Virus record (IMG/VR): IMGVR_UViG_3300032327_000093
Location: 5,215-69,214 of that record
Length of the DNA: 64,000 nt
Source: a virus
Lineage: Duplodnaviria; Heunggongvirae; Uroviricota; Caudoviricetes
Reading direction: 5' to 3' (one strand)
Both the position numbers and the translations under genes were made by a program. Below the pieces are notes generated by a model. It had not been told where the DNA came from and did not search any database. It worked only from the letters and a program-made list of their open reading frames with translations. Positions 4,774-36,896 of this stretch are shown piece after piece. Every line of letters starts with the position of its first letter. Position 1 is the stretch's first letter.

Positions 4774-5976
4774 ATGACTGAAACATTTTGTATATTACCA
4801 TGGATGTCCATGGCAACTAATCCTAAGGGCGAACTAAGAGTATGTTGCAATAGCACTGATAGTACTCCTGGAGCTATTAGTAATCTCATTACTAGACACG
4901 ACAATACTCCTTATCATATATTAGACGATGATATTGATAATTTTTGGAATAGTAAAATCTTAAAAAATTTAAGAAAAGATTTCCTTAATAATGTGAAACC
5001 AAAAATATGTCGCCAATGTTTTAGCTTAGAATCTTTTGGAATAACATCCCCTAGACAATTTTGTAATCAAAAATGGATGTTTGATTACGAACCTAGTATC
5101 ACCCCTCCTGTTATTATTAAATACATAGATATACGATTGGGAAATTTATGCAATTTAAAATGCAGAATGTGTAATCCATATTCAAGTAACCAATGGATCG
5201 AAGAATGGGGATTGGTGAAAGAACCATTGGATGATAAAACCAAAACACAATTATTTAAAATGGATTGGCCTAATAATGACAAGGTGTCTGAAAATTTATT
5301 GAAGTTTGCTAATACAATAGAAGAAATATACTTAACTGGAGGTGAACCAACTCTAGCTACAAGTCAATATATATTGTTTGATAAATTAATTGAATTGAAT
5401 GTAGCTAAAAATATTACTCTGAAGTACAATACCAATTGCACAAATTTACCAAAAAAAATGATTGACTATTGGAAACACTTTAAAAAAATTTCGCTGAATG
5501 CTAGTGTAGATGCATATGGAGACCTCAATAGGTATATAAGATACCCAACTGGATGGAGTTTAGTTGAAACTAATTTAATGAAATTTAAAGAATTATCGCA
5601 TGAAAATATAAATTTAGCAATACATATTACGGTTCAAATGTATAATATATTACACCTAGACAAATTATTAGAGTTTTTAAATATGCACCAAATAAACAAT
5701 ATTTATTTAAGTATACTAGATCACCCATCATGCTTAAACATTAAATTATTACCAGTTGAATTGAAAGAATTAGCTAGAGATAGATTACAGCCGTTTATGC
5801 ACATTCACAGAGTTAAAAACATTATAGATTATATGTTATCTGAAGATTTAAGTTTACGACTTAGCGCATTTAAAATGTATACACTGGCACTTGATAAAAG
5901 TAGAAATGAATCGATTTTAGATTTGGTTCCAGAAATGAAAGATATATTTAATACTAAAGATAATAGTTCACACTAA
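4774..5976 (+). CDS. radical SAM enzyme (CxxxCxxC) with extra N-terminal Cys motif; substrate unknown
   Basis: GNLCNLKCRMCNP is a canonical CX3CX2C radical SAM cluster motif; N-terminal CILPW...RVCC cysteine motif; GGEPTL SAM-binding-like segment. Confidence 0.55.
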   Translation: MTETFCILPWMSMATNPKGELRVCCNSTDSTPGAISNLITRHDNTPYHILDDDIDNFWNSKILKNLRKDFLNNVKPKICRQCFSLESFGITSPRQFCNQKWMFDYEPSITPPVIIKYIDIRLGNLCNLKCRMCNPYSSNQWIEEWGLVKEPLDDKTKTQLFKMDWPNNDKVSENLLKFANTIEEIYLTGGEPTLATSQYILFDKLIELNVAKNITLKYNTNCTNLPKKMIDYWKHFKKISLNASVDAYGDLNRYIRYPTGWSLVETNLMKFKELSHENINLAIHITVQMYNILHLDKLLEFLNMHQINNIYLSILDHPSCLNIKLLPVELKELARDRLQPFMHIHRVKNIIDYMLSEDLSLRLSAFKMYTLALDKSRNESILDLVPEMKDIFNTKDNSSH

Positions 5977-7880: not shown

Positions 7881-8141
7881 ATGACAGCAAAAATATTTAC
7901 AGGTGAACAAAAAATTAAACTGGTTCAATTGGTGAATGAGGGCATGGTAGTATTACATGAAATCGATACCCTACGTGAGGGTCTAAGTGATACTGTAAAG
8001 GCTATCGCAGAAGAACTAGAAGTAAAGCCTAGCATTCTTAAGAAGGCAATATCTGTCGCACACAAAGCAAGTCTTGGTCAAACAAACGCTGACCACGAAG
8101 AACTAAACACAATCTTGGAAACTGTAGGTAAGACACTTTGA
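7881..8141 (+). CDS. hypothetical small protein (86 aa)
   Basis: ORF with a strong RBS (aaggagaaattATG); its stop overlaps the polymerase start. Confidence 0.4.
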   Translation: MTAKIFTGEQKIKLVQLVNEGMVVLHEIDTLREGLSDTVKAIAEELEVKPSILKKAISVAHKASLGQTNADHEELNTILETVGKTL

Positions 8142-10843
8142 GTTACGTTGACGCTATTCATAGCAGGGATGAGGATCGTATCTACGTTGTAGAACGAGAC
8201 AAGGATGGCAAACGTCAATACAAAGAATATCCCACAAACTATGTACTCTACTATCCCGATCATAAGGGCAAGTATCGTAGCATATATGGCGACCCCGTAA
8301 ATCGTTTCAGCACACGCAAACGACAAGAGTTTGAAAAAGAACGCAGGATACATTCTGGTAAAAAACTCTTTGAAAGTGATGTGCCAGTGATTTTTCGCTG
8401 CCTTAGTGAAAACTATCTCAAGGCAGATGTTCCTAAACTTCACACATGCTTCTTTGACATTGAGGTAGACTTTGATCCTGAGAAGGGTTTCAGTCCCACT
8501 AGTGATCCATTCAATCCAGTAACTGCTATCTCATTATATCTGGACTGGCAAGATACATTGGTTACACTATGTATTGCTCCCAAACACATGAGTCCAGAGA
8601 CAGCACAGGAAATCTGTAATGAGTTTGAGAACTGTATGTTGTTAACAAATGAAAAGGACATGTTTGATGTTTTCTTTCAACTGATTGAAGATGCTGATGT
8701 GATGACTGGTTGGAACAGTGAAGGATATGATATACCTTATATGGTTAATCGTGTCACAAGAGTAATGAGCAAGGATGATACTCGCAAGTTTTGCTTAATG
8801 GGTCAACTACCTAAAGCAAGAGAATACGAACGTTTTGGTAAAAGTGAAACTACATATGACTTAGTAGGTCGTATTCACATGGACTACTTACAACTCTACA
8901 AGAAGTATAACTATGAATCACGACATTCATATAAGTTAGATGCTATTGGTGAGATGGAAGTAGGCGAGAACAAGACTCAATATGAAGGTACTCTTGACCA
9001 ATTGTATAACAAAGACTTTAAGAAGTTTTTAGAATACAATCGTCAGGATACTATGTTGTTGGTGAAGATTCACAACAAACTCAAATTCTTAGAACTAGCT
9101 AATCAGCTAGCACATGAGAATACAGTATTACTGCCAACAGTAATGGGTTCTGTAGCTATGATTGAAATGGCAATTTTCAATGAAGCGCATGAACGCGGAG
9201 TAGTAGTTCCCGATAAAAAACGAAAGAATGAAAATGCAGAAGAAACAACGCCAGCAGCAGGTGCCTTCGTTGCTACGCCCAAAAAAGGCATGCACGAATA
9301 CGTCGGAGCAGTTGACATTAACTCGCTCTATCCCTCGGTTATTCGTGCCCTCAACATGGCAGGAGAAACAATCATCGGTCAAGTCCGTCAGACATTAACT
9401 GACAAATATATGGACGACAAGGGCAAGCAACTTGCTAGCCTTAAGAAACGATATAAAGAAGGTGACGATGATGTTACTGGTGCTATTCTATGGGAAAACT
9501 TGTTTGGCGTATTAGAATATTGTGCTATTATGAATCAAGACCGTGGCACAATGCTTACACTAGATTATGAAGATGGTCGTAGTGAAGAATATAGTGCGGC
9601 TGAAATATGGAAGATGATTTTTGATAGCAATAGACCTTGGATGCTAAGTGCAAATGGTACAATCTTTACATATGAGAAAGAAGGTATTGTCCCTGGATTA
9701 CTATCACGCTGGTATAGTGATCGTAAGGTCATGCAAAAGAAACTTAAAGAATCTACTACTAACGAAGATAGAGAATACTGGGACAAGCGTCAACTTGTTC
9801 GCAAGATTTTGTTGAATAGTGCATATGGTGCACTACTAAATGAACATTGTAGATTCTATGATAAGCGTATTGGTCAGAGTGTTACATTAAGTGGTCGTCA
9901 GATTGTCAAACACATGATGAGTACTATTAATGAAACAATCGCAGGTACATATGCACACGATGGCGATGCTATTGTATATGGTGATACTGACAGTTGTTAC
10001 TTTACTGCATACCCTATTCTGAATACGCAAATACAGAATGGTGAACTAGAGTGGAACAAAGAAACTTGCATCGGGTTGTATGATAGTATTGCTGACCAAG
10101 CTAACGAAAGTTTCCCCGCATTCATGGAACGTGCATTTCATGCACCACGCAAGAATGGTGAAATCATCAAAGCTGGTCGTGAATTGATTGGCGATCGTGC
10201 TATCTTTATCACAAAGAAACGCTATGCTATCAATATCTTTGATAAAGAGGGCAAGCGCAAAGATACAAACGGTAAGAACGGTGATATCAAGGCAATGGGT
10301 CTTGACTTGAAACGTGCTGATACTCCTAAGTACATACAAGAATTCTTAATGGATGTGCTTACTAAGGTCCTTGCTGGTGCTCAACGTGATGTTGTTATTG
10401 AAATGGTTAAAGAATTCAAAAACAAACTATCAGAACAAGATAGTTGGACAAAGGGTTCACCTAAATCAGTTAACAACTTGACTAAGCATACAATTGAGTT
10501 TGAAAAGACTGGTAAGTGTGGTGTTGGTCATGCCCGTGCAGCAATTAACTGGAACTATCTACGCAGAGTATATGGTGACAACTACAGTCAAAAGATTGTA
10601 GATGGTATGAAGATTGTTGTATGTAAACTCAAAGACAATGCATTGGGCTTCACTAGTATCGCATATCCAGTTGATGAACTACGACTACCTACATGGTTCA
10701 AGGAATTGCCTTTCGATGATTTACTAATGGAAAAGACATTGGTAGATGAAAAGATTGATAACTTGATTGGCGTATTAGATTGGGATATCAGAAGCAATAC
10801 TGATGTTAACTCAACATTTGATGACTTATTCACATTTGGTTAA
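8138..10843 (+). CDS. family-B DNA polymerase with 3'-5' exonuclease domain
   Basis: Exo I FFDIEVD; pol motifs KILLNSAYGAL (motif A region) and YGDTDSCYF (motif C); 901 aa. Confidence 0.95.
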   Translation: MSYVDAIHSRDEDRIYVVERDKDGKRQYKEYPTNYVLYYPDHKGKYRSIYGDPVNRFSTRKRQEFEKERRIHSGKKLFESDVPVIFRCLSENYLKADVPKLHTCFFDIEVDFDPEKGFSPTSDPFNPVTAISLYLDWQDTLVTLCIAPKHMSPETAQEICNEFENCMLLTNEKDMFDVFFQLIEDADVMTGWNSEGYDIPYMVNRVTRVMSKDDTRKFCLMGQLPKAREYERFGKSETTYDLVGRIHMDYLQLYKKYNYESRHSYKLDAIGEMEVGENKTQYEGTLDQLYNKDFKKFLEYNRQDTMLLVKIHNKLKFLELANQLAHENTVLLPTVMGSVAMIEMAIFNEAHERGVVVPDKKRKNENAEETTPAAGAFVATPKKGMHEYVGAVDINSLYPSVIRALNMAGETIIGQVRQTLTDKYMDDKGKQLASLKKRYKEGDDDVTGAILWENLFGVLEYCAIMNQDRGTMLTLDYEDGRSEEYSAAEIWKMIFDSNRPWMLSANGTIFTYEKEGIVPGLLSRWYSDRKVMQKKLKESTTNEDREYWDKRQLVRKILLNSAYGALLNEHCRFYDKRIGQSVTLSGRQIVKHMMSTINETIAGTYAHDGDAIVYGDTDSCYFTAYPILNTQIQNGELEWNKETCIGLYDSIADQANESFPAFMERAFHAPRKNGEIIKAGRELIGDRAIFITKKRYAINIFDKEGKRKDTNGKNGDIKAMGLDLKRADTPKYIQEFLMDVLTKVLAGAQRDVVIEMVKEFKNKLSEQDSWTKGSPKSVNNLTKHTIEFEKTGKCGVGHARAAINWNYLRRVYGDNYSQKIVDGMKIVVCKLKDNALGFTSIAYPVDELRLPTWFKELPFDDLLMEKTLVDEKIDNLIGVLDWDIRSNTDVNSTFDDLFTFG

Positions 10844-27381: not shown

Positions 27382-27921
27382 ATGGATATCAACTTTTACC
27401 GTAAAAAATTAGAGAATGATCCCACTCTGTTTGATTTGTTAGCTATCCGAGGATATGACAAACATAATAAAAAACTTATGCTACAACATATCAATTCTGG
27501 TGAAATTGCAATGGGTGCTATATGGGAAAACGCATTATCTATGTTCATGCCATTTACTAAACAATGCTCATTGAATAATATGTCAATGGATTGGGATGAA
27601 GGAACTGATGGTAAATTTGTCATGACCAGTATTAACAATAATATTAAAGAACTTAAAGTAAGTATAGGAGGTGTTAAAAATAAAACAGGTACACTTAGGG
27701 TTTGTATTTGTTCTAGGCAAGACAACTACAAATTGTATTTTATGTTAATTCCTTACTCTGTATATAGTAATTGGCCTACTAATACCTGTTCTCCATTGAA
27801 ATTGGCGTTTGATAGAGACGGTATCCCAAAGGGATCTAAGTGGAAAGAGTATGCGGGATTTGTTGTTCCCTTTTCACTTGTATCTGCACCCATGTCTACT
27901 ATAAAATTCGTAAACAAATGA
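27382..27921 (+). CDS. hypothetical protein (start moved to ATG 27382, downstream of the promoter)
   Basis: The ORF-track start 27343 lies inside the promoter; the next in-frame ATG, 27382, follows the -10. Confidence 0.4.
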   Translation: MDINFYRKKLENDPTLFDLLAIRGYDKHNKKLMLQHINSGEIAMGAIWENALSMFMPFTKQCSLNNMSMDWDEGTDGKFVMTSINNNIKELKVSIGGVKNKTGTLRVCICSRQDNYKLYFMLIPYSVYSNWPTNTCSPLKLAFDRDGIPKGSKWKEYAGFVVPFSLVSAPMSTIKFVNK

Positions 27922-28913
27922 AATACGCACTTATCGATACCGCAAATACTTTCTTTCGTGCCCGTCACATTGCATCACGCAATAGTACAGTGGACGAGAA
28001 GATTGGAATGGCAATACATCTTACTATGGCTAGCACTAATCAGATAGTCCGTAAGTTTGGCATCGATCATGTGGTGTTCTGCTTAGAAGGTAAATCGTGG
28101 AGGAAGTCGTATTACACTCCGTACAAGAAAAATCGTGTAGTGGATACAATGTCTCAGACAGAGGCTGAAGTAGAAGAAAATACCATGTTTTGGCAAACGT
28201 ATGATAGTTTCACAACCTATCTCAAAGAGAAAACAAACACTAGTGTCCTGCGTGATCCTAAGGCTGAGGCTGATGACTTGATTGCACGTTTCATTCACTT
28301 GCATCCTGAGGATGAAATTTTTATCATCAGTTCGGACACAGATTTCGTACAATTAATTTCACCAAAAGTAAAGCAGTATAACGGTGTCAGTGGGGAACTA
28401 ATCACACTTGAAGGTTATTTCAATGACAAGGGTAAGCAGGTCCTAGACAAGGAAAAGAATCCTAAACTACTTGAGGATCCACAGTATTTGCTTTTTAAGA
28501 AATGTATGCGTGGTGACGCAACCGACAACGTATTCAGTGCTTTTCCCGGTGTGCGTGAAAAGGGCACACAAAAGAAAGCAGGATTGATTGAGGCTTATGC
28601 TGACCGTAACAAACAAGGCTTTGATTGGAACAATATGATGTTGCAACGGTGGACCGATCACGAAGGTGTTGAGGTCCGTGTGCGTGACGCATATGAACGT
28701 AATCGGGTATTGATTGACTTGACAGCACAGCCCGATGATGTTAAACTATCAGTAGATACAAACATTCGTGAGGGTGTGCGTACAACTACTATTCCTCAAG
28801 TTGGTATTCACTTGATGAAGTTTTGTGGTAAGTATGAATTGAACAAAATTGCAGAGAATGCAGAAACTTATGCAAAATGGCTTAACAGCCCTTATGTAGG
28901 TGTACTAGCATGA
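27918..28913 (+). CDS. 5'-3' exonuclease / flap endonuclease (T4 RNase H / FEN family)
   Basis: MKYALIDTANTFFRARH start and FCLEGKSWRKSYYTPYKKNR are typical of the phage FEN N-terminal domain; start chosen at ATG 27918 with RBS (ORF track 27840). Confidence 0.65.
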   Translation: MKYALIDTANTFFRARHIASRNSTVDEKIGMAIHLTMASTNQIVRKFGIDHVVFCLEGKSWRKSYYTPYKKNRVVDTMSQTEAEVEENTMFWQTYDSFTTYLKEKTNTSVLRDPKAEADDLIARFIHLHPEDEIFIISSDTDFVQLISPKVKQYNGVSGELITLEGYFNDKGKQVLDKEKNPKLLEDPQYLLFKKCMRGDATDNVFSAFPGVREKGTQKKAGLIEAYADRNKQGFDWNNMMLQRWTDHEGVEVRVRDAYERNRVLIDLTAQPDDVKLSVDTNIREGVRTTTIPQVGIHLMKFCGKYELNKIAENAETYAKWLNSPYVGVLA

Positions 28914-29065
28914 AATATATTTTGGTTATATGTTGTTTACTATTGCATGGTTGTGCAGTGGTAGCAGTTGCTGACGCAGGTGTTACTGTGGTAGCAACAG
29001 GAGTGAAAGTTACAGCAAAGGCAGTGGGTGCAGTTGCAGATGCGATTATACCCGGGAAGAAATGA
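28910..29065 (+). CDS. small lipoprotein (51 aa; lipobox LLHG-C) with Gly/Ala/Val-rich mature part, entericidin-like
   Basis: MKYILVICCLLLHGCAVVAVADAG...; ATGA overlap with both neighbours; not in the ORF track (<60 aa). Confidence 0.45.
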   Translation: MKYILVICCLLLHGCAVVAVADAGVTVVATGVKVTAKAVGAVADAIIPGKK

Positions 29066-29304
29066 TTGAGAAAAGAATTCAGGAACATAAAAAAGCCGCT
29101 GAACAATATGTAAAGGATAATTTTCCTAAATTAAAACCTACCTATAAAAGTTACCAAACTAAGGTTGATAATAAGTTTGCACAGTTGATAGTTAATGATT
29201 GTTGTACTATAATTACACAGGCTTCTACATTTAGTGCGTTACCAACACAGTATATAAAATCTATTAGAGAAATGTTTGACTTTGAAGATGAAAGTAACTT
29301 ATAA
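29062..29304 (+). CDS. small protein of the KFAQLIVxEC paralog family
   Basis: DNKFAQLIVNDCCTI motif shared with 29526, 32564 and 33512. Confidence 0.45.
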   Translation: MIEKRIQEHKKAAEQYVKDNFPKLKPTYKSYQTKVDNKFAQLIVNDCCTIITQASTFSALPTQYIKSIREMFDFEDESNL

Positions 29305-29533
29305 ACACACCGTGCCAAGGTTTCGTATTAAATCAATACGATTTGGTGAGCCAGGCTTCATTATGAATGATGAAAATGGTTTCAGTATTATACCCAGAGG
29401 TAGTTTAGAAATCAGTAAAGAATGTCCTGAAAATTATAGAAAGATTTTACTTGAATGTATTAACAAATGCTGGTTAATACCAGTCGTGCATATGAAAGAG
29501 TCTGAATGGATTTGGGATAAGCTAGGTGAATAA
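29276..29533 (+). CDS. hypothetical small protein (start uncertain)
   Basis: ORF overlapping its upstream neighbour. Confidence 0.3.
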   Translation: MTLKMKVTYKHTVPRFRIKSIRFGEPGFIMNDENGFSIIPRGSLEISKECPENYRKILLECINKCWLIPVVHMKESEWIWDKLGE

Positions 29534-29720
29534 CATGAATAATAGAGTAAGAGAACTAATCAAACTACATGGAAGTGATTCTAGTGGTAAGTGGGTAGCA
29601 GTAGATAAAGTAGAATTGATTGCCGAGTTGATTGTTCAGGAATGTGCTGATATTGCTGATAAAGCAGAACCATACAAGTCCAACGATTTGATTAGAAAAC
29701 ATTTCGGAGTTGAAGAATGA
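29526..29720 (+). CDS. small protein, KFAQLIV-family variant (AELIVQECADI) ending in HFGVEE
   Basis: C-terminal ...RKHFGVEE*; the junction cassette links it to the next gene. Confidence 0.45.
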   Translation: MNNMNNRVRELIKLHGSDSSGKWVAVDKVELIAELIVQECADIADKAEPYKSNDLIRKHFGVEE

Positions 29721-29962
29721 TATTTGATTTTTTTAATAAAGATAAATCTAACGGCAATGTGCTTCCATTTCCTGGTACTTATGTTGAACCAGCTAAGCCA
29801 GTGAAAGAGCCTGAACCTAAAACATTATATTCTTTTGGTGTTACTGATGATAACCGCTTGACATTTACAATGGGATATACTACACTTACAATGAATGAAG
29901 TTGGTGTACAGCAGTTAATCGACCAACTAGAATTTTTCAAGAATCAATTGAGTAAAGAATGA
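29717..29962 (+). CDS. hypothetical small protein
   Basis: ORF starts in the conserved gaagaATGA junction. Confidence 0.4.
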   Translation: MIFDFFNKDKSNGNVLPFPGTYVEPAKPVKEPEPKTLYSFGVTDDNRLTFTMGYTTLTMNEVGVQQLIDQLEFFKNQLSKE

Positions 29963-30243
29963 AATTAAAAATTTGTGGTATAACATACGAAGTATTGTAT
30001 AAGACACCTGAGGAAATGCAAGGTAATATTGGTCTTGCACTATTCAATAGTCAAGAGATTTGGATCAATGATACCTTTACTGAGCAGACTAAAAAGATTG
30101 CATTGTGGCATGAAGTGTTACATATTCTAGACCATGCATACAATCTAAAGATGACAGAAGAACAAGTTAAGTTTCAAACACATGCATTGATTGCATTAGT
30201 AGAAGATAACCCGGAGGTATTTAGTAATGGCACAGCACGGTAG
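29959..30243 (+). CDS. small HExxH protein (WHEVLHILDH; ImmA/IrrE-like metallopeptidase motif?)
   Basis: ORF with HEVLH. Confidence 0.3.
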   Translation: MKLKICGITYEVLYKTPEEMQGNIGLALFNSQEIWINDTFTEQTKKIALWHEVLHILDHAYNLKMTEEQVKFQTHALIALVEDNPEVFSNGTAR

Positions 30244-31066
30244 ATATTGGAGTTGCACCCCTTTTGCTGATTGGGTTCGCGGCACACCTAAGGGTGGCGC
30301 AAAGACCAGTGAAGATTGGGATGATTGGCGGGACAAAGCCAAAGGCTATAACCCTGTTCGTTATTGGATTGCCGAAGAAGGTCTTAGCCACTTACAAGAT
30401 TTTGTAACTTATCCTATTAGAAAGATATACGATGTCAAGTATTACATTAATAATCGTTATGTTACTCGCACTCATGCTCTTACCGCCCATCCTCGTGATA
30501 TTAAGCCTGGCTCTTGGAGTGATGTTGGCAGTCGCTTCCTTCCATGCTTATTTAATGAGTTGGTTGATTTTGTCGAAATCGAACAAGCCTGGAGCCACAT
30601 TGCGTGGGGAAACAAGGAAGATCGTGCTAAATATGATCCTCCTTTCTGGGCTAGTGGTTGGTGGCGTTGGCGCACTTGGCGTTGCAGTCAAGCAGGTCTC
30701 GATCATCTTGACTGGGCAATGACTCTTACTGATGTTGAATGGTTGGATGAAGATAAAAAGCATTTAGCAAAACCAACTAATCAAGCATTAGTTGCCAAAG
30801 AGATTAAAGAACTTTACACATGGTGGACAGTTACATATCGCAATCGTCCAGACCCATATGACGCAAGTGGTTGGAGTGACTACTGTGATAGTTTGCGTAG
30901 TAAGTTTGGCGATAACTGGATTGGCAAAAGTTCAAAAGAACCTAATGATGTTATATTGCGTGAAAAGGCTCATAAGTTGTTAGACGAGATTGAAAAAGCC
31001 TACGAAAAAGAAGATGAAGAAATGATGATTCGTTTGATTAAAATTCGTGATAGTTTGTGGACATGA
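30227..31066 (+). CDS. hypothetical Trp-rich protein (279 aa)
   Basis: ORF; many W residues (WWRWRTWRC). Confidence 0.4.
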   Translation: MAQHGRYWSCTPFADWVRGTPKGGAKTSEDWDDWRDKAKGYNPVRYWIAEEGLSHLQDFVTYPIRKIYDVKYYINNRYVTRTHALTAHPRDIKPGSWSDVGSRFLPCLFNELVDFVEIEQAWSHIAWGNKEDRAKYDPPFWASGWWRWRTWRCSQAGLDHLDWAMTLTDVEWLDEDKKHLAKPTNQALVAKEIKELYTWWTVTYRNRPDPYDASGWSDYCDSLRSKFGDNWIGKSSKEPNDVILREKAHKLLDEIEKAYEKEDEEMMIRLIKIRDSLWT

Positions 31067-31514
31067 TATGAAAAAGATTTATTATGAAAAGGTAGGCAAG
31101 AGGTATGTACCCGTTGCTGAATATGATAGTGACTACTTAGATAGTTTTCCCAAAGGCAGCACTTTAGTGATGTGCTATCCAGGTGGGCAAAGTCGTAGGT
31201 TTAATATCGATCCTGATTATGCAGCATTGATTGCTGCTGCCCGTGTAGCCGAAGATGCTATGATTCAAGCTATGACCAAAGCTAGTGAATTGAAACCTAA
31301 ACACACTCCTATCACTGAAGGTCAGCGTAGGGCTTGGGCGAACCTGGCTAAAGAGTTTGGAGAGGAGATTGCTACACTGAATGGAGCCAGTTCATACGAT
31401 ATCACTCAAGCAGGACTGAAGGCATTGAAAGATGAAGCCGCTAAACTATTGACTAACCCTGCTGTCAAAAAAGCCTATGAGCATTTTTTACTTGTCGCTG
31501 AACTGACTAAGTAA
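31047..31514 (+). CDS. hypothetical protein
   Basis: ORF. Confidence 0.35.
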   Translation: MIVCGHDMKKIYYEKVGKRYVPVAEYDSDYLDSFPKGSTLVMCYPGGQSRRFNIDPDYAALIAAARVAEDAMIQAMTKASELKPKHTPITEGQRRAWANLAKEFGEEIATLNGASSYDITQAGLKALKDEAAKLLTNPAVKKAYEHFLLVAELTK

Positions 31515-31579
31515 TATCCAAAACAATAGACAACTATTGTATTTTCTGTTATACTGTATTTTTTTAACAAAGGACTTTT

Positions 31580-32437
31580 ATGTTTACAATTCTCGTGGGT
31601 GTTATCGTAGGTTTGCTAGTAGCAGGTGCTATTAGTTTTATGTCAGAATTCAAAAAGATTGCGTTGGGTTTACTTATAGGTCTAGCAATTATTCTCATAT
31701 CAATTGGAATTTCAGCATTTACTGTGATTAGTGGAGGCCATATCGGTGTCCAAGTAACACTTGGTGAGGTTAACTTAACCCCATTGACTGAAGGTAGCCA
31801 TTGGGTTAACCCAATTAGTCAAATTAAAGATGTCGAGGTGCGACTACAGAAGGCAGAACTCAAAGGTGCCAATGCAGGTACCAAAGACTTGCAGGTTGTA
31901 CATACTGATATCGTAGTGAACTATCGTCTTGACCCACTCAAAGTACCACACATCTATAAAGAGTTTGGTCTTAATGTAGATGAAAAGGTTCTTGGCCCTG
32001 GCATCAACGAAGCGTTCAAGAGTGTGACAGGTCACTACACCAGTGAAGAACTTATCACCAAACGTGACTTGGTCAGTGCAGAAATTCTACAGCACTTGGT
32101 AGAAAAGATGGCTCCGTTCAATATCACAGTAAGCAATATCAGCTTGGTGAACTTTGGATTCAGTCCTGAATATCAAAAGGCTATTGAGGCTAAAGTTATC
32201 TCTGTACAACAAACTGCTAAGGCTCAACAAGACCTAGAGCGTATCAAGGTTGAGGCTGCAAGTCGTATCGCACAGGCAGATGGTGAAGCTAAAGCTATTG
32301 CGATTCAAGCGGCTGCTATTCAAAGTAATGGTGGTGAGAACTATGTCAAGTTGCAGTGGATTGAAAAGTGGAATGGTGCATTGCCTAGCACAATGCTTGG
32401 TGGTGACACAAAGACATTGATGAACATCGGTAAGTAA
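31580..32437 (+). CDS. SPFH/band-7 (prohibitin/HflK-C-like) membrane protein
   Basis: N-terminal TM helices, then a band-7 core (VNYRLDPLKV...ISLVNFGFSPEYQKAIEAK...) and a coiled-coil A/Q-rich tail. Confidence 0.7.
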   Translation: MFTILVGVIVGLLVAGAISFMSEFKKIALGLLIGLAIILISIGISAFTVISGGHIGVQVTLGEVNLTPLTEGSHWVNPISQIKDVEVRLQKAELKGANAGTKDLQVVHTDIVVNYRLDPLKVPHIYKEFGLNVDEKVLGPGINEAFKSVTGHYTSEELITKRDLVSAEILQHLVEKMAPFNITVSNISLVNFGFSPEYQKAIEAKVISVQQTAKAQQDLERIKVEAASRIAQADGEAKAIAIQAAAIQSNGGENYVKLQWIEKWNGALPSTMLGGDTKTLMNIGK

Positions 32438-32563
32438 AGGATTGACTGTGCGTAAGTATATCACTAACAAATTCAATAGTGTATTTCTTCCTTACGAAGA
32501 AGGTATGATTGAATGGCTTAATGAAAATTACCCGCACAGTCAATATCGCATAGTGGAGGTAGC

Positions 32564-32833
32564 ATGAACGAACGAATTAAAGAACTTGCCGAACAGGCTT
32601 TTTTTGATGAATCAACATCACGACCTAGCACCAAGATGTATACTTTTTCTGAACATAAAATGGAAAAGTTCGCCCAGTTGATTGTCAAGGAATGCTTGAA
32701 TCAAGTAAGAGAACAATATCTGCCCGTGCTAGAAGATGAACTTATGATGAAGGACACGCATTGGGATGGTTATGTACAGTGCGGGGTTGATAGTTATGTA
32801 GCGATTAAAGAACATTTCGGAGTTGAAGAATGA
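32564..32833 (+). CDS. small protein, KFAQLIV family, ending in EHFGVEE
   Basis: MNERIKELAEQA...KFAQLIVKEC...IKEHFGVEE*. Confidence 0.45.
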   Translation: MNERIKELAEQAFFDESTSRPSTKMYTFSEHKMEKFAQLIVKECLNQVREQYLPVLEDELMMKDTHWDGYVQCGVDSYVAIKEHFGVEE

Positions 32834-33003
32834 AACTGTCGGTTGTGGTTGAGCAAGATGGAAAAAGTAAAACAATCTGCACTTGGGAACACGAACATTG
32901 TGTTCTAACAGGCAAGGTCAAAGATGTCACCGAAGAGGTATTAACGGAGATTAACCGTAGGATTAAAGAACATTTCGGAGGGAAGAATGAACAAAAACAT
33001 TGA
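32830..33003 (+). CDS. small protein (57 aa) ending in KEHFGGKNEQKH (frameshifted copy of the EHFGVEE junction)
   Basis: Not in the ORF track (<60 aa); starts in the junction ATGA at 32830. Confidence 0.35.
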   Translation: MKLSVVVEQDGKSKTICTWEHEHCVLTGKVKDVTEEVLTEINRRIKEHFGGKNEQKH

Positions 33004-33172
33004 AGCATTTGTTCAAGGATACTTGTTCTTTGATGTTAATGGCAAAAGATTCCTATTATATCATAGTGCAGTTTCTTATAGGAAAACAATAGATGGAAAT
33101 TTGTTATTCAAAGGATGGCACATATATAAAGGATGGCAAGGTTTTTTTGAAAGATTTGGAGTTGAAGAATGA
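32987..33172 (+). CDS. small protein ending in ERFGVEE
   Basis: ORF; the junction cassette at its 3' end. Confidence 0.4.
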   Translation: MNKNIEAFVQGYLFFDVNGKRFLLYHSAVSYRKTIDGNLLFKGWHIYKGWQGFFERFGVEE

Positions 33173-33405
33173 GTTATAGTGACCTAAAGTCAGACGGAGG
33201 AATGGATCCGCGTGAGCGAGAACTTATTGGGTATATTGAGCGTGAAACAGGGTTTGACCCCTTGTATGCGCCACCAAAAGGTAGTATAGTCACACATGCG
33301 TTTATACAATGTAAGTATTGCAACTGTCCCATCTATCATTGTATGGGCCCACGGTCGGATGCGGTATGTTTGATGTGCCATGAAATTGAGACTGAAGGAA
33401 AATGA
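33169..33405 (+). CDS. small Cys-rich zinc-finger-like protein
   Basis: CKYCNCPIYHC...CLMCHE. Confidence 0.4.
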   Translation: MSYSDLKSDGGMDPRERELIGYIERETGFDPLYAPPKGSIVTHAFIQCKYCNCPIYHCMGPRSDAVCLMCHEIETEGK

Positions 33406-33511
33406 ACGATATTATTCCATTCGGTCATCCTTACTGGTATCATCTATATCGTAGAGAGATGGAAATCCACATAACAATAGCCATTCGTAACAAACTTAAA
33501 TTTAGCCTAAT

Positions 33512-33766
33512 ATGAACGAACGAATCCGACTACTTGCCGAACAGGCTGAAATTTTGATTACTGAAGTAGGAGCATTTCATAATACTCCGCAAGGTGCTTA
33601 TCAATTAAAAGAACAGCATATGAAAAAGTTCGCCCAGTTGATTGTTCGGGAATGTATTGAGATAGTTGAATACAAAGGTCGCAAGGTTGGGACAAAACAT
33701 CCAGTTGGGTTCAATCTCATGGATGCTGCATGGGATATAAAAGAACATTTCGGAGTTGAAGAATGA
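33512..33766 (+). CDS. small protein, KFAQLIV family, ending in EHFGVEE
   Basis: MNERIRLLAEQA...KFAQLIVREC...IKEHFGVEE*. Confidence 0.45.
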   Translation: MNERIRLLAEQAEILITEVGAFHNTPQGAYQLKEQHMKKFAQLIVRECIEIVEYKGRKVGTKHPVGFNLMDAAWDIKEHFGVEE

Positions 33767-33975
33767 GAATCATACTACTGAGTTTGTTGTTGGTAGGGTG
33801 TGCTGGTGCTATGTCACCTGAAGAACAAAAGCATGTAAAATACTGTGCTAGCCAAAGGTTATATGCAGCTAGAGTAGATGATAAACTAGTCTGTCGTAAA
33901 ATACTTACTATAGAAAATGACCAAATGGTAATTGTTCACGCATCTATAAAAGAATATTTTAAGGTGAAAGAATGA
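33763..33975 (+). CDS. small lipoprotein (lipobox LLVG-C) ending in KEYFKVKE (degenerate junction)
   Basis: MRIILLSLLLVGCAGA... Confidence 0.45.
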   Translation: MRIILLSLLLVGCAGAMSPEEQKHVKYCASQRLYAARVDDKLVCRKILTIENDQMVIVHASIKEYFKVKE

Positions 33976-34196
33976 TAGAAATCTTCATACCTGTACTATT
34001 TATATGCATGAATGGTCATTGCGATTTCATGCAGGCTCAGGCTTTTTATAAATCTGAGGCACAATGCAGAGTATCTATCGATAATCAAAAAGCACACATG
34101 CTTGAAGTTGCTGAACAGGCTGGTCAAGGCAAGTATACTATATTAGAAGGCACTTGCATCAATGCTAAAGTCGAAGATCCTAGGAACAAAGCATGA
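33972..34196 (+). CDS. hypothetical small Cys-containing protein
   Basis: ORF. Confidence 0.35.
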   Translation: MIEIFIPVLFICMNGHCDFMQAQAFYKSEAQCRVSIDNQKAHMLEVAEQAGQGKYTILEGTCINAKVEDPRNKA

Positions 34197-34373
34197 TTAG
34201 TCTAATACTATTAAAGGTTGAGAAATGAAAATGCAAATCACTTTCCACAAGCGAACCGGGATCTCGCCAGGGTTCGGAGTGTCTCGTGAGTATTATGGAA
34301 AGGCAGGCACAGTTTATATTTTACGATTGTGGTGGAGTGCTTTGTGTTTAACATTTTATCGGGAGTATAAAAA

Positions 34374-34652
34374 ATGATCAATCTAAACTTTAATATAGCT
34401 AACCCATGGCGAACTGATAAAGTTTGGAATACATTGTGGAGCAAGAGTGGTTCTATCACCAAGAACAAAGCATGGGAGTTTAATGGTTATCGTACTGATC
34501 GTATCATCAATACAGAATTCCATTGGTCATTAAAAGGTGATCATGCAGGCGCTAGATTGGTGTTTGGAGTATTTGGTTATGAAATCGAACTAGAATTCTA
34601 CGACACCCGTCATTGGGATTTTGAAAAAAATACTTGGAAATGTTATAAATGA
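34374..34652 (+). CDS. hypothetical small protein
   Basis: ORF with RBS ggagtataaaaaATG. Confidence 0.35.
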   Translation: MINLNFNIANPWRTDKVWNTLWSKSGSITKNKAWEFNGYRTDRIINTEFHWSLKGDHAGARLVFGVFGYEIELEFYDTRHWDFEKNTWKCYK

Positions 34653-34939
34653 ATCAAGCAGAATATTTTATGAAGAACCGTCATGTGGCTAAATATGAAT
34701 TTGGTCAGCGTATCTTTGGATACTGGAATAATATCCCATTCGTTGGCACAGTTGGTAATGATACTGTAGTCAATGAAAGTTTTGGGCCACAATATAGTAT
34801 ACATTTGGATTTACCGATTCGTTATGCAAATAGTACATATAATGTTATAGTAGACAAACAAAGTAATTTCAAGAAGATTACAAAACTAATAGAAATGGAA
34901 GAAGATGTCAAAACCACTAATCGCAAAACCCGTAGTTAA
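34649..34939 (+). CDS. hypothetical small protein
   Basis: ORF. Confidence 0.35.
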   Translation: MNQAEYFMKNRHVAKYEFGQRIFGYWNNIPFVGTVGNDTVVNESFGPQYSIHLDLPIRYANSTYNVIVDKQSNFKKITKLIEMEEDVKTTNRKTRS

Positions 34940-35363
34940 AAATCAATTCTGGATTGTTACTGATGGTACAGCTAAAGTAGGAAATGTTATTGCCGATGGT
35001 TCTGGCTTTGAGGTAAAACTCAACGGCAACAAAACACATTTCAAAAACACTAGTGCAATTAAAAAACAAACTAGCATAGAGTTTCAACAAACAAAGGTAG
35101 AAAAGACTAAAAAAGAGATACCTTTCAATGAATATCCAACAACAAAGAAGGTCTACAATTCTATGTTGGATATCAAGCGTAAGATACACTTGTTCACTAA
35201 AACAAGTAAAAGCAAGTGCTATCATGCTGCTGGCTGGTATGTCATGTATCAAAGTGAAGAACCTGTTGTAGTTTTTTGCCCTAAATACATTTTTATTCAA
35301 CGATATGAGTATGAAGGCCCATACAAAACTGAGGACGAAGCAAAAAACTTGATAAATATCTGA
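34905..35363 (+). CDS. hypothetical protein
   Basis: ORF. Confidence 0.35.
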   Translation: MSKPLIAKPVVKNQFWIVTDGTAKVGNVIADGSGFEVKLNGNKTHFKNTSAIKKQTSIEFQQTKVEKTKKEIPFNEYPTTKKVYNSMLDIKRKIHLFTKTSKSKCYHAAGWYVMYQSEEPVVVFCPKYIFIQRYEYEGPYKTEDEAKNLINI

Positions 35364-35563
35364 TGTTTCATATAAAAAGATTTATTGATAGAGTAGCCGT
35401 TATCGAAGGTAGACAAGGCAAAGATGTGGTAATTCCATTAACTGACGCTAGAAGTTTGCGTGATGAACTGGCTAAATTATTGATAGATCACTATGAAGTT
35501 ACTGAAGGAAAGAAGAACACTTCCGAAGTTATTGAAGTAGAAGTCATCGGAGGTAAATTTTAA
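35363..35563 (+). CDS. hypothetical small protein
   Basis: ORF. Confidence 0.3.
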   Translation: MFHIKRFIDRVAVIEGRQGKDVVIPLTDARSLRDELAKLLIDHYEVTEGKKNTSEVIEVEVIGGKF

Positions 35564-35856
35564 TGAGTAGAACACAACCGAAAGTATTATTAGAACTTGT
35601 AGATAAAACTACCTATAAGTGCGACCAAATTGTAGAAGCCAGCGGCATATGGGCAGTATTCTACGATAGGCAACCTATCAATCTAAAATCACAACATTAC
35701 TTAGATAACGAAGCGACACCTAAGTATAAGAAAACAAGTTTCAGTAATCCAGGACATGCAAGAAATCTTTGTCGCAAACTAAACAATCAATTTAAGACAG
35801 ATAAGTTTACTGTCGTTTTTATGAACAATGGTACTACTGTGTACCCGGATGAGTGA
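35563..35856 (+). CDS. hypothetical small protein
   Basis: ORF. Confidence 0.3.
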   Translation: MSRTQPKVLLELVDKTTYKCDQIVEASGIWAVFYDRQPINLKSQHYLDNEATPKYKKTSFSNPGHARNLCRKLNNQFKTDKFTVVFMNNGTTVYPDE

Positions 35857-36238
35857 TAGAAAAAAACTAAAATACACTATCACTAGAGCAGTTATGGATC
35901 AACTGCCTAGCAACAACACTCCATTTGAGTCAATCATAAGTGATTGGTGGTTCACCAAATCAGGTGATAGCCTACGCCTTACTCCACAAGGTGATTTTAA
36001 TTTCAGACAAGCACAGATTGAATACTTTGATTTACCAGTCAAAGTAAAGAAAACTAATTGGTATAAATTCTTAATTGAATGCAACAAGAAAATTAAATGT
36101 CCATATTATTTCAGTGTAAATAAGGATGCAGAGTCAAAAGAACCTTTCGTCAGACTGTACGATAGTAAGATAGCAATGATGCTAGCACTATACGGTGATA
36201 TAGAAAGTTATTTAGAATCAGTAAGGATAAGACAATGA
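35828..36238 (+). CDS. hypothetical protein
   Basis: ORF. Confidence 0.35.
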   Translation: MVLLCTRMSDRKKLKYTITRAVMDQLPSNNTPFESIISDWWFTKSGDSLRLTPQGDFNFRQAQIEYFDLPVKVKKTNWYKFLIECNKKIKCPYYFSVNKDAESKEPFVRLYDSKIAMMLALYGDIESYLESVRIRQ

Positions 36239-36405
36239 CCGAAGAAAAGAAAAAGAATCCAATAGCGTTGGCACTAGAAGCCAAAAAGAAAAACGCACTA
36301 TTAAACCCTGGCTTAGGCAAAGCACCTAAGAGTCAAGGTCCTAAAGCAAATAGTAAAGGCTTTGGTGGGGCAAGTGTTACACGCAGAGCGGGTCGCGGTG
36401 GTTAA
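36235..36405 (+). CDS. small basic protein (56 aa; K-rich N-terminus, GRGG C-terminus)
   Basis: Not in the ORF track; ATGA-coupled. Confidence 0.3.
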   Translation: MTEEKKKNPIALALEAKKKNALLNPGLGKAPKSQGPKANSKGFGGASVTRRAGRGG

Positions 36406-36896
36406 TACCACTCACCTTCGTTACGCATACGTTTAATAAAAGACAAGTAATTACTACATACACCGAAACAACGTAGATGTACTGTACTATACATACCTCT
36501 ATCTTGTATCTCAGGTAGAAAGATAACACTATTATTGTTTACGGGAACTGTACCCGGGGTAATGATTTTACCATTACTTGCGGTTACTGGTGTACTTTCA
36601 GTGTCAGTTGGGAACCAGAAGTAATTTGGATAATATTTACTTGGCTGTGTCACTATCCAATTTTGCATTTCAGTATTCATAGCATTCAACCAGAAACGAG
36701 GACCTTGTAAATACTTTTCGGTCACTTCAGTTATAGGTTGAGTAACACCCAAATATAGCTTTCCGTTATCGCGCCATACATTGACCATAGTGCTGAATCC
36801 AGCATTCATTGATTTAGTTATTTGTTTTGGGGTACAAGCGTCCTCAAAATTGGTTCCGTCGTAGATACCCTGATAAGATATATATTGTAAATTCAT
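36402..36896 (-). CDS. orphan reverse-strand hypothetical protein (164 aa, W/Y/N-rich)
   Basis: Only minus-strand ORF in a ~25-kb plus-strand region; no plus-strand ORF competes for the interval. Confidence 0.45.
   Translation of the reverse strand: MNLQYISYQGIYDGTNFEDACTPKQITKSMNAGFSTMVNVWRDNGKLYLGVTQPITEVTEKYLQGPRFWLNAMNTEMQNWIVTQPSKYYPNYFWFPTDTESTPVTASNGKIITPGTVPVNNNSVIFLPEIQDRGMYSTVHLRCFGVCSNYLSFIKRMRNEGEWY

Follow-up and report, generated by a model that had tools for sequence, protein, structure and literature searches.

The present study concerns a 64,000-nucleotide (nt) stretch of viral DNA (Caudoviricetes; IMG/VR record IMGVR_UViG_3300032327_000093, positions 5,215 to 69,214), hereafter termed the window, and a short nucleotide motif, or linker, that recurs at the boundaries of small genes within it. 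The window belongs to an 88,653-bp metagenomic scaffold and is phage DNA, encoding a family-B DNA polymerase, an exonuclease, collagen-like tail fibres and an SPFH/Band_7 protein. Our analysis identified the motif as the conserved 3' end block of genes encoding an undescribed phage protein family of very large size, each gene consisting of three conserved blocks separated by two variable modules. The relevant open reading frames (ORFs) and their parts are listed below, with E values referring to the family profile (a hidden Markov model, HMM) and L-numbers denoting the loci used for comparison.

29062-29304, + strand: divergent family paralog ending ...IKSIREMFDFEDESNL*; HMM E=1.9e-7; mid block KFAQLIVNDC, 3' block decayed
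29535-29720, + strand: family paralog P1 (MNNRVRELIK...LIAELIVQEC...LIRKHFGVEE*); HMM E=1.9e-7
29691-29720, + strand: 3' block or linker copy J1, ATTAGAAAACATTTCGGAGTTGAAGAATGA; GGAG, spacer TTGAAGA and an ATG overlapping TGA
29717-29962, + strand: gene of 81 amino acids (aa) starting at the ATG of J1; an insertion relative to L101, with AAGAATGA at both boundaries
32564-32833, + strand: family paralog P2; HMM E=1.9e-21; 5' block 32564-32599, N-module 32600-32662, mid block 32663-32695, C-module 32696-32803, 3' block 32804-32833
32830-33003, + strand: ORF57, non-family gene of 57 aa with the tail ...INRRIKEHFGGKNEQKH*; no family HMM match; linker damaged and stop lost
32987-33172, + strand: ORF61, non-family gene of 61 aa ending ...FFERFGVEE*; no family HMM match; 18-nt core at 33155-33172
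33169-33405, + strand: Cys-rich gene of 78 aa starting at a linker ATG; its own 3' junction lacks the linker
33512-33766, + strand: family paralog P3; HMM E=1e-42; 5' block 33512-33547, N-module 33548-33622, mid block 33623-33655, C-module 33656-33736, 3' block 33737-33766
33763-33975, + strand: ORF70, lipoprotein-like gene of 70 aa starting at the ATG of the P3 linker; tail IKEYFKVKE* at 33946-33975

The motif has a consensus of 27-30 nt (ATTAAAGAACATTTCGGAGTTGAAGAATGA) with a 15-nt core (GGAGTTGAAGAATGA). The 27-mer AAAGAACATTTCGGAGTTGAAGAATGA is present exactly at 32807-32833 and 33740-33766 and with two mismatches at 29694-29720, while 100 dinucleotide-preserving shuffles yielded no match; an 18-nt core (TTYGGAGTTGAAGAATGA), for which no occurrence is expected by chance, occurs four times in the window, the extra copy being located at 33155-33172. 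In all four copies (GGAG-TTGAAGA-ATGA at 29706-29720, 32819-32833, 33158-33172 and 33752-33766) a 7-nt spacer separates GGAG from an ATG that overlaps the TGA stop codon. The original prediction, made from the letters of the window, had described this arrangement as a linker embedded in coding sequence, and its dual-coding anatomy, in which a C-terminal peptide is combined with a Shine-Dalgarno (SD) sequence, spacer and ATGA overlap, is upheld by our findings.

The accompanying claim of a cassette reused at six consecutive gene boundaries fared less well. Four copies with the core and two degenerate copies are real, none being expected by chance, but they do not constitute a free-standing cassette, nor are the boundaries consecutive, since the junction at 29720 lies 3.1 kb and six genes away from that at 32833 and the junctions at 33405 and 33515 do not carry the motif. 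Similarly, ORFs do end in the motif at 29720, 32833, 33172 and 33766, while the copy at 32962-32990 carries a 1-nt deletion and a substitution (GGAGGGAAGAATGA) which place the stop codon out of frame, so that the ORF continues to 33003, and the copy at 33946-33975 (IKEYFKVKE*) matches the consensus at 22 of 30 nt. Alignment of 130 nt around each junction revealed that identity is restricted to approximately 30 nt; as the flanks are unalignable beyond this, the copies are not whole-gene duplications.

No -35/-10 pair was detected in the motif, and across 27800-36500 the same scan returned promoter-like and terminator-like sites at close to the expected numbers (28 against 28.2 and 6 against 5.0, respectively). 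RNA folding of 70 nt around the four copies indicated unstructured sequence (z = -0.30 to +0.75), no inverted repeat was found at the motif, and Rfam covariance models gave 0 matches at E<=1 within 28900-34400. On these null results, readings of the motif as a promoter or terminator, an RNA structure or an Rfam element were dropped. As additional observations on its composition, a 10-mer (ATTAAAGAAC) is common to the 3' block (ATT AAA GAA CAT, IKEH, 32804-32813) and the 5' block (ATT AAA GAA CTT, IKEL, 32576-32585), in the window as in the family consensus, and in tandem family genes the junction and the start of the next gene together make up a conserved unit of approximately 60 nt that contains a direct repeat.

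The protein family and its three conserved blocks

Three of the six ORFs bearing the tail are paralogs (29535-29720, 32564-32833 and 33512-33766), and a fourth, divergent paralog is located at 29062-29304; this paralogy, together with the two further blocks, was overlooked in the original prediction. Aligned with one another, the window paralogs share, besides the tail, an N-terminal MN(E/N)R(I/V)xxL...(AEQA) and a central (KF/LI)A(Q/E)LIVxEC sequence. In the two best paralogs the 5' block (ATGAACGAACGAAT...GCCGAACAGGCT, the second part of which is also given as CTTGCCGAACAGGCT) and the mid block (AAGTTCGCCCAGTTGATTGT) are near-identical in nucleotides, the sequence between the blocks being unrelated. 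A profile derived from database homologs matched exactly the four paralogous window ORFs, with E values from 1e-42 to 2e-7, and did not match the three tail-bearing ORFs 32830-33003, 32987-33172 and 33763-33975.

Family genes are composed of a 5' block (MNERIxxLAEQA), an N-module, a mid block (KFAELIVREC), a C-module and a 3' block (IKEHFGVEE*), and mostly encode proteins of approximately 65-120 aa, with one to twelve copies per locus of up to 15 kb and a habitat of mostly freshwater-type viromes. A search for the motif in other phages, as advised in the original prediction, located the exact 21-mer CATTTCGGAGTTGAAGAATGA in relatives of the window and far beyond, on more than 119 IMG/VR contigs and frequently in several copies per contig. 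These contigs range from 4 to 374 kb, and the guanine-cytosine (GC) content of their stretches from 32 to 52%. Among 185,579 prokaryotic genomes the 21-mer was present in 11 stretches only, all of them on contigs of metagenome-assembled genomes (ten below 17 kb and one of 185 kb) which derive mostly from freshwater-type taxa or lake bins, and which are therefore likely to be binned phage fragments.

A word-indexed protein search returned 168 homologs, every one annotated as 'hypothetical' and without Pfam domains, and an exhaustive profile search identified 7,962 representatives of 50%-identity clusters at E<=1e-3, including 1,446 at E<=1e-10. Pfam and PHROGs gave sub-threshold noise only for all small window ORFs; a PDB profile search and Foldseek against PDB produced no significant match for the family; and the best BFVD matches were uncharacterised proteins of uncultured Caudovirales, none below E=0.001. 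Neither megablast of 29000-35000 nor tblastn of ORF 32564-32833 yielded a match in cultured phages, and a literature search with the conserved peptide strings of the family retrieved nothing relevant.

An AlphaFold2 model based on a 47-sequence alignment (mean predicted local distance difference test, pLDDT, 79) comprises three helices at residues 3-11, 26-57 and 69-80, with the 5' block on helix 1, the mid block on the first half of helix 2 and the 3' block on helix 3, while the variable parts correspond to the connecting regions and the end of helix 2. The model thus suggests a three-helix protein, in which the 3' block would encode the end of the last helix.

Nucleotide-level conservation and the probable coupling junction

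As a control for bias, family genes were sampled by means of a degenerate amino acid-level pattern of the mid block, which yielded 173 ORFs, 72 of which end in HFGVEE and 54 of which carry the exact 21-mer. Codon use in these 72 tails is close to uniform, with CAT, GGA, GTT and TGA in 71 of 72 cases each and GAA in 72 of 72 at both positions, the sole residue with appreciable variation being Phe (TTC 55, TTT 17). The needs of GGAG, of an extended SD sequence (GGAGnTGA compared with GGAGGTGA) and of the ATGA overlap can account for the GGA codon, the T of GTT and GAA-TGA, but not for CAT and TTC. An information profile displayed a sharp block from -30 to the stop codon, in which third positions hold 1.5-1.75 bits as against approximately 0.1-0.3 upstream.

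In the reverse sample, family genes were chosen solely by the 3' 21-mer, and the mid and 5' blocks were then scored. The mid block (KFAELIVREC) employs AAG in 51/52, TTC in 46/52, GCC in 47/52, GAG in 50/52, TTG in 49/52 and ATT in 52/52 genes, and the 5' block AAC in 41/43 and CGA in 39/43, while in the variable parts of these genes the same codons are in the minority, with fractions of 0.35 (AAG), 0.24 (TTC), 0.20 (GCC), 0.23 (GAG), 0.29 (TTG), 0.38 (AAC) and 0.24 (CGA). Since the 5' and mid blocks are not located at a gene junction and are nevertheless synonymously conserved, coupling is not the whole explanation.

The genes to which the motif is attached were established in a census of 172 exact 21-mers in the fetched IMG/VR loci. 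The great majority (151 of the 172, or 88%) terminate family ORFs, approximately four to seven terminate clearly or possibly unrelated ORFs, five follow frameshifted family genes and six have no upstream ORF. In two further cases, the 21-mer is read by homologous membrane mini-ORFs that are in a different frame and terminate at the TGA within GT-TGA-AG (...TFRS*), which indicates that the linker supplies stop codons in two frames. These mini-ORFs (37-40 aa, M..E...WW.V..LL...) occur in L043 (+ strand, motif at 5566) and L070 (- strand, motif at 1348), and their stop lies 3 nt before the linker ATG.

The embedded ATG opens an ORF of at least 20 aa in 163 of the 172 copies (95%), the gene starting there being a family member in 46 cases and another gene in 113, and in 42 of the 172 a family ORF is directly followed by another. 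When the 15-nt core was considered with at most one mismatch, it was found to terminate 279 ORFs, of which 242 belong to the family and 37 do not, and to mark the start of 208 non-family ORFs. Of 53 GGAG-N7-ATGA junctions on non-family genes, 15 have the spacer TTGAAGA and no other spacer is present more than twice, a bias that speaks for a shared origin of the core and against convergence. An ATGA end is also present in 125 of the 173 family ORFs that were sampled independently of their 3' end, and the SD-spacer-ATGA arrangement probably permits coupled translation of, or re-initiation at, the downstream gene.

A 40-nt junction query against cultured phages retrieved only loose SD-ATGA look-alikes, none of them in the family, from Rheinheimera Barba phages, Salmonella S16-like phages and Edwardsiella phage PEi20. 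In Rheinheimera phage Barba1A (L120, 2460-2524) an unrelated gene ends in ...EHLGGEE* (GGAGGTGAAGAATGA), and in Salmonella phage S16 (L121, 1501-1531) the dCMP deaminase ends in ...CGIEE* (GGAATTGAAGAATGA). These look-alikes suggest that a GGAG-type SD sequence 7 nt before ATGA itself tends to impose a G-x-E-E C-terminus.

Exchange between relatives

The closest relatives of the window reveal where homology begins and ends. In L200 and L201, which are 98% identical over the Band_7 gene, homology ends at 32599, the last base of the P2 5' block, and returns at 33621, the start of the P3 mid block, from where it extends to 34196 at 89% identity; it likewise ends at 32599 in L094 (87%) and L101 (83%). 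L030 (97%) and L134 (78%) match only 32663/4-32833, that is from the mid block to the stop codon of P2, and L199 (98%) and L202/L203 (96%) match only 33510/12-33655, from the start of P3 to the end of its mid block, with unrelated neighbours. Within the array all endpoints of segments of at least 78% identity are located at blocks (32599, 32663/4, 32819, 32833, 32990, 33510/12, 33621 and 33655). In L101 the ortholog of P1 (89% nucleotide identity) directly follows the exonuclease gene and is itself directly followed by the MKFKICG gene, so that the window possesses extra genes on both sides of P1. The stretch is hypervariable with respect to L101 and L200/L201.

The two modules between the blocks reassort almost freely. 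One set of homologs of ORF 33512-33766 carries its N-module (EILITEVGAFHNTPQGAYQLKEQHMK) with unrelated C-modules, and a second set its C-module (IEIVEYKGRKVGTKHPVGFNLMDAAWD) with unrelated N-modules. Clustering of the modules of 366 family proteins revealed that most multi-member N clusters (50 of 58) have two or more C clusters as partners, and that the same applies to C clusters with respect to N clusters (54 of 67). Among pairs of ORFs from the loci and the window, 101 share the N-module and not the C-module, 84 the C-module and not the N-module, and only 16 both. Overall, exchange is intragenic, involving half-genes, as often as it involves whole genes. Pairs sharing a single module are 82-83% identical in that module and at the baseline of approximately 50-60% in the other module and the 120-nt flanks, while pairs sharing no module still exhibit block identities of 75% (5'), 83% (mid) and 81% (3'). 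Differences in shared modules fall at codon positions one, two and three in the numbers 421/307/1206 (952 synonymous as against 585 non-synonymous codon changes), and this third-position bias indicates translated coding sequence under purifying selection.

The three tail-bearing ORFs outside the family provide a further view of such exchange. At first comparison with the fetched IMG/VR loci none of the three had a homolog; an ortholog of ORF57 was later found in L202/L203, and homologs of the other two came from a large protein database. A copy of ORF57 with 97% identity is present in L202/L203 in an unrelated gene context; the match spans precisely 32819-32990, beginning at the linker core and ending with the linker. 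The ortholog (L202, 1942-2103) retains an intact end, ...INRRIKEHFGVEE* (IKEHFGVEE), and is preceded by the core GGAGTTGAAGAATG only, where an unrelated 55-aa ORF reads these nucleotides in another frame. ORF57 is thus a gene cassette which, in two different contexts, terminates in a linker and has at least the linker core before it. Close homologs of ORF61 retain RFGVEE*, while distant ones end in FYERVVL, FYLRFTS or FFLSVGGRNE, and these divergent ends suggest that the ORF61 tail was grafted and is probably acquired. The homologs of ORF70 retain IKEYFKVKE, with IKKYFGVEK in one variant, and its tail is possibly a decayed linker, with which it is compatible, short of proof.

With regard to the original prediction, its attribution of the repeated junctions to shuffling by homologous recombination is largely right in spirit. 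Exchanges relative to other phages are indeed bounded by the linker, as exemplified by ORF57 (97% in L202) and the grafted tail of ORF61, and the hypervariability that it proposed for this stretch is borne out. The main reason for the reuse of the linker is, however, paralogy, which accounts for 88% of 172 copies, the linker being a tail common to paralogous genes which possess three joints in all.

Interpretation and genomic surroundings

Taken together, we consider it probable that the motif is the 3' block of a mosaic family, serving simultaneously as the C-terminus of the protein, as a coupling site and as one of three recombination joints. The 3' block would encode the end of the last helix together with the GGAG SD sequence, 7-nt spacer and ATG of the next gene. 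Exchange at the blocks is evident from the comparison of relatives; as to its enzymology, we infer that the three blocks represent minimal patches of nucleotide homology for general recombination, during co-infection or between paralogs. Homologous recombination at the blocks would swap half-genes, whole genes and neighbouring unrelated genes among paralogs and phages, and occasional crossovers may strand the linker, or its 15-nt core, on unrelated genes, giving rise to the tail-only ORFs 32830-33003, 32987-33172 and perhaps 33763-33975. It is further conceivable, if rather doubtful, that the family acts as a phage-borne combinatorial library, in which a three-helix scaffold carries two swappable modules and the joints are maintained for interchangeability across a pan-virome gene pool; were this the case, small binders directed at, for instance, targets in host defence or takeover would be diversified at the level of the population, and any neighbouring gene inserted at the 3' joint would come with translational coupling ready-made.

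Several findings weigh against this account of recombination joints. The comparison data consist of metagenome assemblies only, the relatives being short-read assemblies, and ORF 34225-34377 is relocated in L201 without a linker, such that some rearrangements bypass it. Across the family, synonymous differences in the blocks amount to 0.21-0.30 per identical-amino-acid codon, which resembles the 0.32 within recognisably shared modules and is about half of the saturation estimated from local codon usage; the view of the blocks as 'frozen' was tempered on this basis, as they are strongly conserved and the near-invariance is that of a large canonical clade. The sequences are, moreover, phylogenetically related, so that codon counts and binomial statistics exaggerate the significance. 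Blocks of one locus are no more alike than those of different loci (70 versus 71%, 82.5 versus 82.2% and 79 versus 78%), which led us to reject local gene conversion among co-resident paralogs as the cause of conservation. Conservation of the blocks may have been selected for recombination, be a by-product of continual recombination within a well-mixed gene pool, or serve another role at the nucleotide level.

That the nucleotide identity reflects ordinary paralogy, with the shared peptide, the SD/ATGA constraint and codon preference leaving no special role for recombination, seems unlikely, despite the large proportion of exact copies (88%) that end family ORFs. GGA, the T of GTT and GAA-TGA are each required by GGAG, the extended SD sequence or internal TGA, and the ATGA overlap, and the look-alike junctions of Barba (...EHLGGEE*) and S16 (...CGIEE*) illustrate how such constraints may act in unrelated cultured phages; the His codon CAT (71/72) and the Phe codon TTC (55/72), however, lie outside the SD sequence, and the 5' and mid blocks, which have no junction role, display equal synonymous conservation, in codons that run counter to the local codon bias. 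Paralogy of this kind is equally at odds with the reassortment of modules, with homology breakpoints at the blocks and with the exact spacer TTGAAGA on unrelated genes. Recent tandem duplication, in which the repeats would be young copies of one gene, retains scarcely any credence: family genes are often adjacent (42/172) and reach 12 copies per locus, but the window paralogs share the three blocks only, their modules and flanks being at random-level identity (baseline of approximately 50%), and each paralog module is closer to modules of other phages than to those of its fellow paralogs. This block-only identity refutes tandem duplication here.

It also appears improbable that the blocks are recognition sites whose nucleotide sequence is kept by dedicated machinery, for which a site-specific recombinase, a homing-type nuclease, polymerase template switching, a RegB-like nuclease cutting GGAG or a RegA-like repressor would be candidates. 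Pan-family synonymous conservation, equal within and between genomes, would fit direct selection on sequence. The linker has stop codons in two frames, the L043 and L070 mini-ORFs reading it in the other frame, and GGAG in the SD sequences of early genes is the target of RegB in T4. No associated enzyme was identified, on the other hand, nor was there an inverted repeat, RNA structure or Rfam match, and contigs of 4-374 kb with 32-52% GC do not make an enzyme common to all of them obvious. Assembly chimeras formed at repeated blocks of 20-36 nt might be suspected, as all relatives are short-read assemblies and the blocks are repeated many times per genome, yet such an artefact is very improbable as the source of the mosaics. 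The same arrangement was obtained from the independent samples L200 (JGI 3300010334) and L201 (3300027708), the window order of P3, ORF70 and ORF74 recurs in two assemblies (ENA and Logan), P0006 is present on 10 contigs, shared modules differ mostly synonymously as real diverged genes would, and the mosaic pattern extends across many datasets.

The joints may be compared with several established systems. Translational coupling through an ATGA start/stop overlap with the SD sequence in the upstream ORF is classical in operons and phages, and the present junction resembles it in its GGAG 7 nt before an ATG overlapping TGA and in the downstream ORF at 95% of copies; ordinary coupled junctions, in contrast, are not conserved as a string of 27-30 nt across thousands of genes and many phage lineages. 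The promoter-early stem-loop elements (PeSLs) of T4-type phages, to which the original prediction had likened the motif, are intergenic and consist of a strong sigma-70-type promoter and a terminator stem-loop acting on transcription (Arbiol et al. 2010, PMC2839356; Comeau et al. 2014, PMC4122927). The linker resembles PeSLs in being short, conserved at the nucleotide level and present at several gene boundaries within a hyperplastic region, the phage in each case possessing a T4-type DNA polymerase. In both systems, copies of the motif mark the ends of the insertions, deletions and replacements that distinguish related phages, and a gene lying between two copies behaves as a movable cassette. 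The linker differs in being located inside coding sequence, as one of three joints of a protein family, and in having no promoter, terminator or stem-loop, such that it would act on translation if at all. The analogy thus holds for the linker as an exchange point and fails for two defining anatomical features.

In architecture, the closest analogue is provided by the gp38 adhesins of T-even phages, in which glycine-rich motifs (GRMs) delimit hypervariable segments (Trojet et al. 2011, PMC3157838, citing Tetart et al. 1996, 1998). The conserved motifs form a structural core bounding the hypervariable segments, and crossovers in or near them yield chimeras, which is the likeness to the present blocks. 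In contrast to gp38, a single-copy virion adhesin of known function, the present proteins are small and multi-copy and show no sequence similarity to it, and the joints at either end of a family gene coincide with its start and with its stop codon and ribosome-binding site. Comparable motif-demarcated module exchange occurs at the 'boundary' or linker sequences of lambdoid phages. In polymorphic toxin and cassette systems a conserved motif likewise demarcates swappable modules (Zhang et al. 2012, PMC3482391). Like the toxin systems, the present family gains diversity from variable modules that recombine at a brief conserved stretch of coding sequence, and has alternative cassettes in arrays; it differs in showing no toxin/immunity pairing and no homology, in having two variable modules per protein of about 80 aa, and in that all of its copies seem to be complete genes, and not silent cassettes, in phage genomes of lytic type.

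Linker-mediated modular shuffling in phages was already known from intergenic PeSLs and a few structural genes such as gp38. New elements here are joints that are coding, one of which doubles as a translational-coupling junction, and a unit of exchange as small as half of an 80-aa gene. With approximately 8,000 clusters at 50% identity and no annotation, the family is among the larger unexplored small-protein families of environmental phages. Should conservation of the blocks have been selected for exchangeability, it would represent a clear natural example of sequence maintained for evolvability and would provide a template for assembling genes from modules with coupling already included; otherwise, the family still explains many orphan ...FGVEE* tails and assists the annotation of hyperplastic virome regions.

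Among the neighbouring genes, ORF 33169-33405 contains a zinc-ribbon-like CKYCNCP...CLMC pattern, has homologs in at least eight of the fetched loci and is part of an accessory gene pool shared with the mosaic family; ORFs 29300-29533 and 33972-34196 likewise have homologs in several loci. The relocated ORF 34225-34377 (MKMQITFHKRTG..., 50 aa) is found at 97% identity in L201 (1351-1504) between two family genes, upstream of a P3-like gene, and its position in the window is occupied in L201 by an HhH-GPD-like gene of 135 aa. ORF 29959-30243 (94 aa), which is conserved beside a family gene in L101, carries WHEVLH (HExxH) with a sub-threshold Pfam match to Peptidase_M78/IrrE N-terminal-like (E=0.0028), and may encode a small metallopeptidase-like protein. 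The DNA polymerase (8138-10843) is closest, at approximately 43-46% identity, to those of jumbo phages (Agrobacterium phage Atu_ph07, Vibrio phage 2.275.O and Rak2-like Escherichia and Yersinia phages); the scaffold, however, comprises only 88.6 kb and would therefore represent either part of a genome or a smaller phage related to this group. Finally, the SPFH/Band_7 membrane protein gene (31580-32437), which is 98% conserved in L200/L201, is directly preceded by the only sizeable intergenic gap, in which TAGACA-17-TATACT with an upstream TG (31527-31555) is among the better sigma-70-like sites of the region.

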